DNA of 64,000 bases from Candidatus Saccharimonadales bacterium (GCA_035480055.1 DATIIB010000007.1:68360-132359), one strand, 5' to 3'; counted from the first letter of the stretch, positions 8,836-21,728 are shown. Notes: generated by a model not told the origin, from the letters alone. A program made the numbers and translations.

Positions 8836-8880
8836 TGGTGGAGATACGGGGACTCGAACCCCGGACCTCTTGCATGCCAT
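8836..8880 (-). repeat. att direct repeat (displaced 3' part of tRNA-Ala, nt 33-77 incl. CCA)
   Basis: 45/45 identical to 21671-21715 (tggtggagatacggggactcgaaccccggacctcttgcatgccat). Confidence 0.85.
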
Positions 8881-8962
8881 TTCAATTCAAGACACCTGTC
8901 GCAGCCGCCTGACCTCCGTCAGTGAACGCATGGACGTACACAAAAGGCGCTGGCTGCTCGGC

Positions 8963-8988
8963 ATCGTTGCTGTCAATCGTTGCTGTCA
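8963..8988 (+). repeat. tandem 13-mer (ATCGTTGCTGTCA x2), candidate integrase arm-type sites
   Basis: The core CGTTGCTGTCA occurs at 8965 and 8978. It recurs at 21609 and 21622 with the same 13-nt spacing. Confidence 0.55.
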
Positions 8989-9180
8989 TCGCAGAACGGC
9001 GCAGGGTAGAAGATGAGCACTAGCGCATCGCTCATCTTCTACCTTGGAGCCCATCGACCAGATTGGCCTGCGCTCAAATTTGCGTGACCTGAAGCCTTAG
9101 ATATTTGTTTGGGAAATGTAACGTCATCGGCGTTCCCAAGCTGATATTGAAAGGTTTGATATAGAAAACTGTGGCCTTTT

Positions 9181-10041
9181 GTGCATAGTCTTCTCTATAC
9201 TATAGTTGTGAGAATATTGGTATTGGGCTCTCTTGGCTTAACCGGGTGGGAGAAGTGGTCGTATTTGGCCACTATTTTAAGCGTCCTAGTAAATGGGGTA
9301 TTCCTATTCTTCCTGATAAAACAGGTGCGGCAAGGACAGGCAGCTCAGAAAGCGGCCGAACGATCGGCTGATGCCGCGAATAACTCTGTCAAAGAAGCCC
9401 TGTACGCGCGTATCGATCAGCAAGCGCCGCGTGTGGTGGCTTTGCTCGACCAGCCAACTATCGGTGGTGTACAGTCTGAGAGTAAAATTGCTTGGGGAGC
9501 AGACCAAGAGGCCGTACTACCACGCGATAAAGAGAAGTACCTTTATGTAGGTGTCACTGGCACACTTATTAATGAAGGTAAAGGTACAGCTCGCGTCCAT
9601 CTAAACGGTGCTGCCGAATGGATTCTAGACGAAGAAGACGAGCCTCTGCTGATGGGGCCAATCACTCCATCACAAGACGACCACATACTGAGGCCTGGCC
9701 AACAAGTACGCTTTCTGTGGTCGGAGGCTCACTCGCTAGAAGATTGGGCAGATGCCTACTCAAACCCATCACCCGCTAACCCAAGAGGAGCGTGTTTCAT
9801 GGATGTAATTGTGCACGACTACTTTGAAGAGGGGGTTATAGACCATATATTCTTAGAGATGAGTGGTCGGCCGCTCGTTCCCGTTGTCGGCGACAGCAGC
9901 CATTGGAAAATACCAGACAAGGCAGAGTTCGCCGCCATAAGCTACCCTATAAAACGGGCACACTTGTGTGAAAATAATCATAAGATTACACCGTCGTGGG
10001 TAGAAACCTACAAAGAATGGGATGAACTGCATGGCAGCTAA
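9181..10041 (+). CDS. hypothetical membrane protein
   Basis: 286 aa with a GTG start and two N-terminal hydrophobic helices. No recognised family. Confidence 0.5.
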   Translation: MHSLLYTIVVRILVLGSLGLTGWEKWSYLATILSVLVNGVFLFFLIKQVRQGQAAQKAAERSADAANNSVKEALYARIDQQAPRVVALLDQPTIGGVQSESKIAWGADQEAVLPRDKEKYLYVGVTGTLINEGKGTARVHLNGAAEWILDEEDEPLLMGPITPSQDDHILRPGQQVRFLWSEAHSLEDWADAYSNPSPANPRGACFMDVIVHDYFEEGVIDHIFLEMSGRPLVPVVGDSSHWKIPDKAEFAAISYPIKRAHLCENNHKITPSWVETYKEWDELHGS

Positions 10042-10624
10042 AGCGACCGCGGATACCTACCTCGTGATGCCTTCAGAAGAGGCGTCGGCTAGAGTATCGG
10101 GCCACATTGGTACTGGTAAACAACTTCTTGAGACTAGCGTTACAAACGCCGATGAGCTGAGGGATATGAGAGCTCGATACCGGAAATGGCGCGAGTATGG
10201 CGTGCAGCTCTTAAAGAACATGTTTAGCGACGATTCCATAGCTGCAAGGCTTCAAGATGATAGCGGTGTGGTTTACACTGGGCCAGACTTAGACGAACGC
10301 TACAGATATTTCCGCAATGACTTTCTCCAAGACATAACTACACTTGAATCCATCGAGGAGATGCTGTCGATCATGCCGAAAGCACCACGAAACAAACCAG
10401 AAGAGCACCAAGGCCAGTCGGCCGGCACTTCTGTGTCTCAAACCTTTCAGGGCCCAGTAGAGAACGTAATCGGCTCCAGTAGTGGACATGCCGACCAAAA
10501 TGGTACCGACAACCAGACTGCACCTTCTGACGGCACCAAGTGGTGGCAATTATTTTTAGCACTATTGGGCGTCGCTGGTACTATAGCAGTCGCCTATATC
10601 GCCCACTGGCTGCACTGGGTATAA
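10022..10624 (+). CDS. hypothetical tail-anchored membrane protein
   Basis: 200 aa, overlapping the upstream gene by 20 nt. C-terminal TM helix WWQLFLALLGVAGTIAVAYIAHWL. Confidence 0.5.
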   Translation: MNCMAAKATADTYLVMPSEEASARVSGHIGTGKQLLETSVTNADELRDMRARYRKWREYGVQLLKNMFSDDSIAARLQDDSGVVYTGPDLDERYRYFRNDFLQDITTLESIEEMLSIMPKAPRNKPEEHQGQSAGTSVSQTFQGPVENVIGSSSGHADQNGTDNQTAPSDGTKWWQLFLALLGVAGTIAVAYIAHWLHWV

Positions 10625-19722: not shown

Positions 19723-19817
19723 ATATTGTGGACCGTTTAAATTCTCAATCAGTATACTGCAAAGCTACATATTTTATACAAAGAAATTGCGTCTGGCCAT
19801 ATGTAAGTGTCTTTGGC

Positions 19818-20195
19818 ATGGAGACGACCCACTACGACGAGCCAGAAGCGCGAACCTTCATCCTAGACGCTGAATCGTTTGCCAAGCTCTCTCCGGAAAA
19901 GAAGATGGCAGAAATACTGAAGGAAGCCCCGACCCTTCGCAAGCTGGGCAAGAGTGCCCTCCTTGGCGCTGAGGTTGAGGAGAAACGTAACTACATGAGC
20001 ATGGAGTGGGCGGGTGCGCCTCACAAGGGGAAGACCACTGACATTGAAAAGCGTCTCGTTCAAAAGAACTTCGACGCGATCAACGAGCGCCTGCGGCAAC
20101 AGGGACTCAGAGAGATCGACCTTGCGAACAGAGAGCATGTTGAACGCTATGACTTGCAAAAACTCGCTCAAGAGCGAGGGATTAAGCTTGTCTAG
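19818..20195 (+). CDS. hypothetical protein
   Basis: ORF 19710-20195, with the likely start METTHYDE at 19818. No recognised family. Confidence 0.4.
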   Translation: METTHYDEPEARTFILDAESFAKLSPEKKMAEILKEAPTLRKLGKSALLGAEVEEKRNYMSMEWAGAPHKGKTTDIEKRLVQKNFDAINERLRQQGLREIDLANREHVERYDLQKLAQERGIKLV

Positions 20196-20243
20196 CTGCA
20201 CCGGCAGCGCCCAACCCACTTGAATTTAATATAGCAAAGAGGT

Positions 20244-20474
20244 ATGAATATGACGAGTATTGATCAAGAAGCAAACTCACGAGCACGGCGGTTGCAACCC
20301 TTCGTGCTCACAATCGAAGAGGCTTGTCTAGTGCTCCGCATCAGCAAAGGGAGCTTATACAAACTCATCCGACGTAAACAGCTAAAGACCGTGCGGTTCG
20401 GCCGTAGACGCTATGTGCCAGCCGAGGAGATCCAGAAGATGATTAATGAATTAACCGAGCAGGAGACTAGTTAG
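20244..20474 (+). CDS. excisionase-type HTH DNA-binding protein
   Basis: 76 aa. LTIEEACLVLRISKGSLYKLIRRKQLKTVRFGRRRYV is typical of the excisionase/MerR-like HTH family. Abuts the integrase start. Confidence 0.7.
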   Translation: MNMTSIDQEANSRARRLQPFVLTIEEACLVLRISKGSLYKLIRRKQLKTVRFGRRRYVPAEEIQKMINELTEQETS

Positions 20475-21728
20475 ATGACGCGACGAGCCAATGGCGAAGG
20501 GAGTATCTATCTCCGGCAAGACGGGCGCTATGCCGCTGCCGTGTACGTCACTACAACCACAGGGATCAGAGTACGAAAGCAGCTCTACGGCAAGAGCCGT
20601 GAGGAAGTCCACCAGAAGCTCACTCGGCTGCTCGCCCAGAACCAACGAGGCATACCCGTTGCGGAACGTACCTGGAGACTCGGCGACTACCTCGACTACT
20701 GGCTTGCTCAGGTGGCCAGCCAAACCCTTCGGCCCAAGACCATCGAGCTGTACGAGTCGAACGTTCGTCTCTACCTGAAGCCCAACCTCGGCCGCTTCAC
20801 ACTGGAGCGCCTAACCGTACCCACCGTGCAGAACTACCTGAACCAGGAGCTTCAGAGGGGCGCTTCCATCCGCAAGGCGCAAGTGATTCGGACTGTGCTC
20901 AGCGCTGCCCTCACTCGGGCTATGCGCGAGGAGTTGATTCCCCGGAACGTTGCGCGCCTGGTCGAGTTGCCAACGTGGGAGCGGGCTGAGATTTTTCCTT
21001 GGACGCTAGCTGAAGCGAAGCGATTCTTGAATCTAACGCAGACTAACCCGCTCTTCCCTGCTTTCCTTATGGTCGTACTGTACGGGCTACGGCGTGGTGA
21101 GGTACTCGGGCTCCGCTGGGTCGACCTCGACGAGCATGCAGGCATCCTGCGCATTCGCCAGCAGCTCCAGCGGGTAGGACGTGAGCTGAAGCTCGGCCCA
21201 GTCAAAACCAGTGCAGGCCGGCGGAACTTGCCATTGCTCAACCCCGTGCGTGAAGCCCTCGCTCAGCTTAAAGCTGGGCGAGGGGGTGCCGAAGATCCTG
21301 AGGCGCTTGTGTTCACGACCCGAACCGGGCAATCAATCGAGCCGCGGAACTTTGTGCGGTCCTTCCATGGAATCTGTAGACACCACGGACTACGCCGCAT
21401 CAAGTTGCATCATCTTCGCCACACAACAGCAACCTTGCTGAAGAACTTAGGAGTGCCTGCGCGAGACGCTCAGCTGATCCTTGGACACTCGCAAATCTCA
21501 GTCACTCAGCAGATCTACCAGCACGACGACATGCTGACACGGCGCGAAAATCTTGTGCGCGTTGAGGAAGTTCTGCTCAACACACAAAAAGACAGCAACG
21601 TTTCTCCGCGTTGCTGTCATTCGTTGCTGTCAAACGACTTCGTCGTTGAGAAGCTCACATCGTTTCAATCTGGTGGAGATACGGGGACTCGAACCCCGGA
21701 CCTCTTGCATGCCATGCAAGCGCTCTAG
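20475..21728 (+). CDS. tyrosine-type site-specific integrase
   Basis: 417 aa with catalytic-region blocks GLRRGEVLGLRW, HHLRHTTATLL and LGHSQISVTQQIYQH. The 3' end runs into the tRNA gene. Confidence 0.9.
   Translation: MTRRANGEGSIYLRQDGRYAAAVYVTTTTGIRVRKQLYGKSREEVHQKLTRLLAQNQRGIPVAERTWRLGDYLDYWLAQVASQTLRPKTIELYESNVRLYLKPNLGRFTLERLTVPTVQNYLNQELQRGASIRKAQVIRTVLSAALTRAMREELIPRNVARLVELPTWERAEIFPWTLAEAKRFLNLTQTNPLFPAFLMVVLYGLRRGEVLGLRWVDLDEHAGILRIRQQLQRVGRELKLGPVKTSAGRRNLPLLNPVREALAQLKAGRGGAEDPEALVFTTRTGQSIEPRNFVRSFHGICRHHGLRRIKLHHLRHTTATLLKNLGVPARDAQLILGHSQISVTQQIYQHDDMLTRRENLVRVEEVLLNTQKDSNVSPRCCHSLLSNDFVVEKLTSFQSGGDTGTRTPDLLHAMQAL
21586..21618 (-). terminator. island-supplied intrinsic terminator for tRNA-Ala(GGC)
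   Basis: Minus strand: GACAGCAACG-cggagaaa-CGTTGCTGTC (perfect 10-bp stem) followed by TTTTT, 52 nt downstream of the tRNA 3' end. Antisense to the integrase 3' coding region. Confidence 0.5.
21609..21632 (+). repeat. two direct CGTTGCTGTCA 11-mers, 13-nt spacing (plus an inverted copy at 21591-21600)
   Basis: Same 11-mer and same spacing as at 8965/8978 near the other island end. Confidence 0.55.
21671..21715 (-). repeat. att direct repeat (within the intact tRNA-Ala)
   Basis: 45/45 identical to 8836-8880. Confidence 0.85.

Follow-up and report, generated by a model that had tools for sequence, protein, structure and literature searches.

The Islander catalogue defines a genomic island within a tRNA gene by a complete tRNA gene that has, 2-200 kb away and in direct orientation, a terminal fragment of that tRNA, and by a tyrosine integrase (PF00589, not of the Xer or integron type) that lies in the island or overlaps it. 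A 3′ fragment is present in 3,760 of the 3,919 catalogued islands, and 2,083 islands belong to the anticodon class (PMC4383910). An integrase open reading frame (ORF) that extends across attP is treated there as a known exception (Hudson, Lau and Williams 2015, PMC4383910). In the integrative and conjugative elements of actinomycetes (AICEs), as described in 2008, attP lies downstream of int and not inside it (PMC2440964). In phage Mx8, intP becomes intX on integration (Tojo et al. 1996, as cited in PMC4383910), and integration of the archaeal SSV-type elements splits the gene of their "suicidal" integrases into two non-functional parts (PMC8371274, PMC7253208). In the Patescibacteria, islands have so far been reported mainly via compositional prediction (PMC12455944). 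Here, we analyzed a 64,000-nucleotide stretch of DNA from a Candidatus Saccharimonadales bacterium (the window; positions are counted from its first letter). We consider, with a probability of about 0.88, that positions 8881-21715 (12,835 bp with one copy of the attachment core) are a mobile element integrated in a Candidatus Saccharibacteria chromosome, at the 3′ part of a tRNA-Ala(GGC) gene.

The anatomy of the site, the homology of its genes, empty sites in relatives and an independently occurring attP establish this architecture. Sequence reading and a repeat finder showed that positions 8836-8880 match 21671-21715 without a difference over exactly 45 nt, forming a direct repeat (TGGTGGAGATACGGGGACTCGAACCCCGGACCTCTTGCATGCCAT) whose identity stops sharply on both sides (t at 8835 and c at 21670; t at 8881 and g at 21716). 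By simple arithmetic, the chance expectation of an exact 45-mer repeat in 64 kb is ~2e-18. The right copy corresponds to nt 33-77 of a 77-nt tRNA-Ala(GGC) encoded on the minus strand at 21671-21747 (ARAGORN; 67.7 bits with Rfam), i.e., it starts with the first base of the anticodon loop (7 nt, AUGGCAU) and extends through the encoded CCA, and in this tRNA G3 pairs with U71 (canonical G3:U70). No tRNA was called by ARAGORN at 8836-8880, and Rfam gave there only a sub-threshold match resembling a tRNA 3′ end. An initial annotation, made without any comparison, had proposed a perfect 45-nt repeat diverging immediately outside, with nt 33-77 of an intact tRNA-Ala(GGC) carrying G3:U70 and CCA on the right and an orphan 3′ fragment on the left, and all of this was borne out. 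The repeat might, according to the same annotation, have been part of a longer segmental duplication; this was ruled out, as the only other sequence shared is a 10-mer present four times at non-colinear offsets.

The exact 45-nt 3′ fragment lies 12,835 bp from the tRNA, within the Islander spacing. A displaced fragment exists for only one of the seven tRNAs of the window, the tRNA-Ala(GGC); the other six lack one, and no second island bounded by a tRNA fragment was found. As in the anticodon class of Islander, an intact tRNA and a displaced 3′ fragment bracket a tyrosine integrase, and the block of identity likewise begins in the anticodon loop and ends with the CCA. The differences are the host, which belongs to the Saccharibacteria/Patescibacteria, and the int ORF, which extends across attP.

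A hairpin followed by a T-run (Table 1) adjoins the orphan fragment, and not the intact tRNA. The RNA fold of 8780-8880 on the minus strand has a z of -4.35, and comparable hairpins stand directly 3′ of the tRNA in four contigs that carry an empty site (L013, L021, L048 and L056; see below). The hairpin is the tRNA-Ala operon's own terminator and has ended up next to the orphan fragment, as expected if 12.8 kb was inserted between the tRNA and its terminator. We propose that a tyrosine integrase recombined an attP, composed of two arm-type sites, the 45-bp tRNA-derived core and two more arm-type sites, with the tRNA-Ala(GGC) gene in its 3′ part. The tRNA copy of the element would have rebuilt the gene, and the host 3′ end with its terminator would have been displaced by 12.8 kb. 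An island that targets a tRNA gene and regenerates its 3′ part had been annotated initially, and the stranded terminator, the empty sites and the attP of a related element (contig L057) all agree with it. The exchange probably took place in the anticodon loop, a position that a perfect repeat cannot locate by itself, and that is favored by the analogy with the Islander anticodon class and by the identity of two attPs for 6 nt beyond the boundary.

The integrase and excisionase genes at the right end of the island read towards the tRNA. The integrase matches Phage_integrase (PF00589; 7.7e-23), Phage_int_SAM_3 (2.5e-9) and phrog_1, with the Xer and integron models of NCBIfam far below their cut-offs, and it keeps all family-invariant columns, including R207, K244, H312, R315, H338 and Y348. 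The stop codon of xis abuts the int start codon, and Xis homologues lie upstream of int in three related loci (L007, L011 and L057). The pair and its orientation were as annotated initially. In one point the annotation needs correction: the int ORF is not confined to the island, but crosses the P arm and the 45-bp core, and terminates at 21726-21728, in the 5′ half of the tRNA gene. The final 18 residues translate the antisense strand of the tRNA, and hence tblastn with the integrase gave a match in every tRNA-Ala contig. The stop codon of this integrated form is the antisense of the tRNA D-arm. The GC content of int is 59% (68% at third codon positions, GC3), the island mean is 52% and that of the window 50%.

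When 20475-21715 is joined to 8881 onward, as would occur in an excised circle, the frame remains open over 458 aa and acquires a tail (SRLTSVSERMDVHKRRWLLGIVAVNRCCH) that fits a consensus found in other members of the family. To define the family, the 120 closest homologues were taken, the best of which are 53-62% identical. Long forms of 450-530 aa account for 92 of them; in these the catalytic tyrosine is followed by a [R/S]CRQxxPS motif, a tRNA-antisense peptide and a tail with the pattern RxTxV...RQWLLGxVAV. The peptide is the antisense of the T-arm and anticodon arm, from several tRNA types and in three frames. Six homologues, that of the window included, are short forms, in which only a few residues follow the tRNA-derived peptide; the tail is absent in 17, and five are of other kinds. 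A tail profile built from the 92 long forms, with the window excluded, matched a single six-frame ORF of the window, 8762-9013 (E = 1.6e-13; the next at 0.05), which is the ORF that runs out of the left core copy.

The same permutation was found as contiguous DNA in a related element. Contig L057 encodes an integrase 53% identical to that of the window (P0039, a long form with an identical core peptide). Its exact 45-bp core lies inside the 3′ end of int, and is followed by TTCAAT, as at window positions 8881-8886. The sequence that directly adjoins the core is homologous to window 8881-9016, and the arms are homologous. L057 is not the window's own excised circle, and no terminal overlap that would indicate circularity was found on it. 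The attP predicted by the initial annotation thus exists independently, with the exact 45-bp core and a homologous arm, and the match to the tail profile supports it.

With attP inside the 3′ end of int, the circle would encode a 458-aa integrase with a conserved helix and the integrated element the 417-aa form. Integration swaps a 45-residue helix-bearing segment for four residues (MQAL) of tRNA antisense. In Mx8, attP is likewise reported to lie in the 3′ part of int, and integration into a tRNA to replace the C-terminus and leave the catalytic domain intact; in the window, too, the int ORF contains the core, at a point 3′ of the catalytic tyrosine. In Mx8 ~112 integrase residues are reportedly replaced by 13, whereas 45 are replaced by 4 here, and in an island, not a phage. 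The SSV-type integrases share with the window a tRNA-derived attachment site in the int ORF. Unlike in SSV, however, a single ORF retains the whole catalytic domain with Y348, and the exchange affects only the C-terminal extension. Short forms of the family are integrated forms. An example is the 409-aa integrase of L009, which overlaps an intact tRNA-Lys(CTT) and has KRQVL as its last residues; no orphan tRNA-Lys fragment, which would mark the far end of the element, was found within the 10 kb available at this locus. The named relatives of the TilS gene of L009 are Candidatus Saccharimonadales, making L009 a second Saccharibacterial member of the integrase family. In a separate case, two long forms (P0042 and P0068) appear to read through a whole antisense tRNA (DTLLKRQVLRPTDL and TLLKRQVLYPTELW, respectively) before RQWLLGxVAV, which suggests that some attPs may carry a complete tRNA copy.

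The arms of the putative attP carry a repeated 10-mer, GTTGCTGTCA. It occurs four times in the 64-kb window (~0.12 expected by chance), always on the plus strand and in two pairs, the members of each pair being 13 bp apart, at -61/-48 and +86/+99 from the core. The P-arm copies are inside the int ORF, where they read RCCHSLLS. A motif scan of L057 revealed an exact motif match at -61 and further sites at +86 and +98, and visual inspection of the alignment added a degenerate second copy near -48; similar paired sites follow the cores of L007 and L011. Position 6 of the motif is T in all window copies and C in all L057 copies (the L057 variant reads GYWGCCGTCA), and the variable positions change together within an element. 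The AlphaFold2 model of the integrase N-terminal domain (residues 1-60) is a three-stranded sheet with a helix, and the arm repeats are putative binding sites of this domain. An inverted repeat at the far side of the P′ arm (Table 1) overlaps the codon (9014-9016) at which int stops in its attP form, and may be a terminator or a protein-binding site.

Sequence comparisons and a structural model suggest that the tail beyond the core is a real, constrained protein segment. At its conserved V, L, R and G positions, four elements differ in their choice of synonymous codons (V is GTC, GTT, GTA or GTG, and L-L is CTG-CTC, CTA-TTA or TTG-CTG). In 92 of the 120 homologues the frame stays open through the core, despite the varied tRNA origin of the cores and the use of three frames. 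The AlphaFold2 model of P0039 has a mean predicted local distance difference test (pLDDT) of 82.7; the tRNA-coded stretch (385-433) is at ~42 and predicted to be disordered, and the tail (439-468) is a helix at 84-90. An alternative, which we find possible but clearly the less probable one, is that the tail is conserved only as DNA, i.e., as protein-binding sites in attP, and that the extension of the ORF has no consequence for the protein. In its favor, GTTGCTGTCA falls in a different frame in each arm (RCCH and VAV), its variable positions, such as position 6, change in concert within an element, and the tRNA-coded stretch is predicted to be disordered; the synonymous changes at conserved residues outside the repeats, the frame kept open across cores of different tRNAs and the confidently predicted helix of the tail argue against it. 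Loss of the C-terminal helix on integration may affect the directionality of recombination.

Judged from its protein relatives and shared gene order, the host is a Saccharibacterium. The closest relatives of the flanking DNA ligase LigA (65% and 63% identity) come from two Candidatus Saccharibacteria metagenome-assembled genomes (MAGs), and the next best is at 40%. The exact 45-bp core was found in metagenome contigs at 44 loci (L013-L056), all of them uninterrupted tRNA-Ala(GGC) genes. In 43 of the 44 contigs the tRNA is identical to that of the window over all visible bases. The contigs range from 38 to 58% in GC content and differ in their flanks, and none has an integrase beside the tRNA. 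The conservation of tRNA-Ala(GGC) across lineages is unusually strict, and provides a broad target range for elements with the same core. Many of these contigs share DUF4396, a 236-aa protein, Ham1 or Mur ligase with the flanks of the window; in L017, Mur ligase, the tRNA and DUF4396 lie within 3.6 kb. At another locus, L002, the order is DUF4396, tRNA-Ala(GGC), two ORFs and Mur ligase, with no integrase. L002, L017 and L039 thus keep the order of Mur ligase and/or DUF4396 without the island. The empty attB and the relatives lacking the island that had been predicted were therefore found, in the 44 contigs and in these loci, all of them from distant relatives. No attP or further copy of the island was present among the 44 exact-core matches, and L057 was found via protein only. 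In the public collection, the integrase has an exact match on one contig only, the 491-kb CAYZNG010000001.1 (GCA_964479845.1).

Some points weigh against an integrated and functional element. The empty sites come from distant relatives (44-45% identity for Mur ligase and 43-58% for DUF4396), and exact-protein look-ups with the left-flank 574-aa protein, the integrase and DUF4396 yielded nothing or only the source contig, and hence no conspecific without the island. The GC content of the cargo is indistinguishable from that of the host, so that the insertion need not be recent. Most homologues are in the attP form, even in a complete Streptomyces chromosome (L011), and hence a long form does not simply mean a free circle. 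That the element is still active is a presumption from sequence. Finally, the source is a MAG, in which a de Bruijn assembler with k <45 could thread a circle into an empty site, and a tRNA identical across many co-occurring lineages creates repeats in the assembly graph. We nevertheless regard it as very improbable that a free circle and an empty tRNA site were artificially joined through the 45-bp core: neither hybrid junction is missing from the 491-kb contig, and their permutation and orientation are correct; the integrated architecture is seen independently in L009; and, with the defaults of assemblers, final k-mers and long reads usually exceed 45 nt. Even such an artefact would leave the element and its target unchanged.

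The L011 locus was also inspected. At 10001-11407 of this locus, in the Streptomyces chromosome CP108106.1, a long-form integrase carries an intact attP (core and both arms). Neither a tRNA nor a duplicate of the core was found within 21 kb of it, and a serine recombinase lies 8 kb upstream.

The relatives of the recombination genes point to AICEs. In L007, L011 and L057 the homologous Xis-Int pair follows TraB/FtsK-like and Replic_Relax genes, and the named integrase homologues are mostly from Streptomyces, Micromonospora, Mycobacteroides, Amycolatopsis and Nocardia. The best annotated relative, at 40% identity, is an integrase encoded on a circular Streptomyces plasmid of 14.3 kb together with traA, traB and a primase-polymerase. 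Upstream of xis, orf161 is 42% identical to a gene in the Streptomyces locus L011 and 34% identical to a gene in L057. By sequence comparison, the recombination module (orf161, xis, int and attP) is of the AICE type, with homologues mostly in Actinomycetota. As in AICEs, a tyrosine integrase is paired with Xis, attP is at the int 3′ end, and the target is a tRNA 3′ end. In contrast to AICEs, attP is inside int, a TraB-type translocase and a replication function are lacking, and the host is not an actinomycete. No TraB-like homologue was detected in the 64-kb window by tblastn with L057 and L058 proteins, nor such a Pfam domain in the island ORFs; the island has no replication gene (Rep, Replic_Relax or primase-polymerase), the Replic_Relax gene of the window being elsewhere, at 47457-48365. 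The Nudix gene of the island (19204-19722) was considered as the Pif-type hallmark of AICEs and set aside, because its homologues travel with the cargo cluster described below in unrelated contexts and it appears to be part of the cargo operon. The locus is best seen as an integrative island with an AICE-type integration module, which could at best be mobilized in trans.

A prophage remnant instead of a plasmid-like island is very unlikely. The integrase matches phrog_1, Xis matches phage excisionase families and the DpdA-like fragment of the cargo a phage family, but PHROGs and Pfam revealed in the island ORFs no capsid, tail, terminase, portal or lysis gene, nor any other virion structural or packaging gene. 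IMG/VR yielded no relative by protein or by core sequence. Furthermore, phage integrases are at most 33% identical to that of the island, versus 53-62% for integrases in TraB/Replic_Relax contexts.

It is harder to dismiss a fixed, immobile remnant, i.e., an element integrated long ago that lost its transfer and replication genes and whose int and xis are decaying, although we hold it to be the less probable state. An old insertion of this kind would account for the lack of TraB/FtsK-like and Replic_Relax homologues in the island and of TraB in the window, for the truncated DpdA gene, for the host-like GC content of the cargo and for an integrated int without the conserved C-terminal helix. 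Decay, on the other hand, is at odds with the perfect 45-bp repeats, with four arm-type sites that are all perfect copies, and with int and xis genes of full length that keep every family-invariant residue; the composition of int is also still foreign (GC3 68%). The integrated element with an intact recombination module remains our preferred reading, and its features are listed in Table 1.

Table 1. Features of the tRNA-Ala(GGC) island and of a second patch of mobile genes in the window.
Feature	Position	Strand	Basis or location
attL core, orphan 3′ fragment of tRNA-Ala(GGC), nt 33-77	8836..8880	-	repeat finder, sequence reading
attR core, 3′ part of regenerated tRNA	21671..21715	-	ARAGORN, repeat finder
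Intact tRNA-Ala(GGC), integration target	21671..21747	-	ARAGORN, Rfam, metagenomic comparison
Intrinsic-terminator-like hairpin and T-run TTTTTCTTTG	8811..8827	-	terminator scan
Tyrosine integrase, integrated form, 417 aa	20475..21728	+	Pfam, ORF call
Xis, excisionase-type HTH_17 protein, 76 aa	20244..20474	+	Pfam 1.1e-13; phrog_66 excisionase
orf161, backbone gene common to AICE-like elements	19710..20195	+	homologues in L011, L057
P′ arm of attP; last 45 int codons in a predicted excised circle (SIQDTCRSRLTSVSERMDVHKRRWLLGIVAVNRCCHRRTAQGRR)	8881..9016	+	reconstructed ORF, tail profile, L057 alignment
Putative arm-type repeats GTTGCTGTCA, two copies, P arm	21610-21619, 21623-21632	+	repeat family D2, motif count
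Putative arm-type repeats GTTGCTGTCA, two copies, P′ arm	8966-8975, 8979-8988	+	motif count
17-bp inverted repeat I13, 94% complementary, 11-nt loop	9002..9046	.	repeat finder
Two ORFs, 286 aa and 200 aa, hydrophobic segments	9181..10624	+	ORF call
DpdA/queuine-tRNA-ribosyltransferase-like apparent remnant, 73 aa	10725..10946	+	PF23859 1.4e-19; phrog_1279 3.3e-23
Three small ORFs, 154, 99 and 85 aa	11045..12066	-	ORF call
EgtD/EasF-like S-adenosylmethionine methyltransferase, 407 aa, weak sub-threshold N-terminal helix-turn-helix	12305..13528	+	Methyltransf_33 1.2e-15
Cargo operon, seven genes	13567..19722	-	Pfam, NCBIfam
IS1595 transposase	46171-47229		second patch
Replic_Relax	47457-48365		second patch
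Nudix	48440-48886		second patch
GmrSD type IV restriction enzyme	49005-50801		second patch
XRE regulator	about 50820-51044	-	second patch
o154 paralogues	51404-51865, 62041-62568		second patch and paralogue

The cargo is a rare sugar/ribosyl-metabolite operon together with several smaller genes. In transcription order, the operon encodes a Nudix hydrolase, an adenylate-kinase-like P-loop kinase, a HAD phosphatase, a protein similar to beta-ribofuranosylaminobenzene-5′-phosphate (RFAP) synthase with a GHMP fold, a GT4 glycosyltransferase, an uncharacterized 413-aa protein and a nucleoside diphosphate (NDP)-sugar epimerase/reductase. All named cargo matches are below the curated cut-offs, as are the NCBIfam matches of the methyltransferase. 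One could guess that the product is a ribosylated or glycosylated small molecule, or a modification of a surface glycan; from the RFAP-synthase-like enzyme, a product of PRPP-dependent ribosylation is predicted. The two hydrophobic ORFs next to attL have no Pfam, PHROG or PADLOC match. The 73-aa ORF that follows them resembles DpdA, the transglycosylase of 7-deazaguanine DNA-modification systems, and spans only positions 148-221 of a 291-position profile (the middle third); it looks like a gene remnant. The family of the 154-aa ORF (o154) is also represented on the related mobile contig L058, and two paralogues lie elsewhere in the window. With PADLOC, only two weak single-gene matches were obtained, and a known anti-phage defence system was ruled out as cargo.

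The RFAP-like protein has eight detectable relatives in a word-indexed search, one of them on L058 (47% GC). This contig carries the cluster in the same gene order, with identities of 60% for the RFAP-like protein, 55% for GT4, 46% for the 413-aa protein, and 73% for both the epimerase and Nudix. The genes around it are two TraB/DUF87-like genes, Replic_Relax, an XRE regulator, RadC and an IS1595 transposase, and the cargo is therefore carried by related mobile DNA. As L058 is a different island, it does not amount to the same 12.9 kb at a non-tRNA location, a finding that the initial annotation had named as contrary to its proposal.

Taken alone, the locus is a textbook tRNA island, as had been read from its sequence. 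The host phylum, the AICE affinity, the int ORF across the attachment site and the arm-type repeats go beyond that first reading. The element is precisely delimited, with attL, attR, attP and attB defined, in a poorly served phylum. Genetic tools are scarce in Patescibacteria, and an integrase with known attP and attB on a widely conserved Saccharibacterial tRNA could serve for chromosomal insertion. The presence of int across attP in 92 of 120 homologues, with a conserved helical tail, suggests a widespread, little-studied coupling of the form of the integrase to its integration state.

Cultured Saccharibacteria have actinomycete hosts (PMC13578794). An integrase family shared with actinomycete conjugative elements bears on gene flow between host and epibiont. 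It is conceivable, and we put it forward tentatively as something rather less than an even chance, that one AICE-like family, with a TraB/FtsK-type translocase, Replic_Relax, Xis and an Int that has its own attP in its ORF, circulates in Actinomycetota and in their Saccharibacterial epibionts, with its tRNA target switched by swapping of the core, and that integration removes the C-terminal helix and so biases against re-excision. The leads are L057, which has TraB, Replic_Relax and an attP matching the Saccharibacterial tRNA-Ala exactly; L058, with the same cargo operon beside TraB-like genes and a Saccharibacteria-like GC content; and L009, a second Saccharimonadales integration, into tRNA-Lys. 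If such a shared AICE-like family were true, it would let host and episymbiont exchange DNA directly.

Two further observations concern neighboring mobile genes. According to the Islander paper (PMC4383910), no integrases other than those of the tyrosine type are known to target tRNA genes. Large serine recombinases run antisense into or through a tRNA gene in two loci, that of L007 (11607-13466) at tRNA-Leu(TAG) (13268-13352) and that of L009 (17830-19383) at tRNA-Arg(TCG) (19318-19394). No displaced tRNA fragment for them was found within loci L007 and L009. Their C-termini are tRNA-antisense peptides, e.g., ARQDSNLRPLG. In the window itself, a second patch of mobile genes at 46171-54337 has no integrase and no bounding tRNA fragment. 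Besides the genes listed in Table 1 it holds a dCMP deaminase, a histidine phosphatase and an AAA_33 kinase; it is partly syntenic with L058, and the second of the o154 paralogues lies outside it, at 62041-62568.

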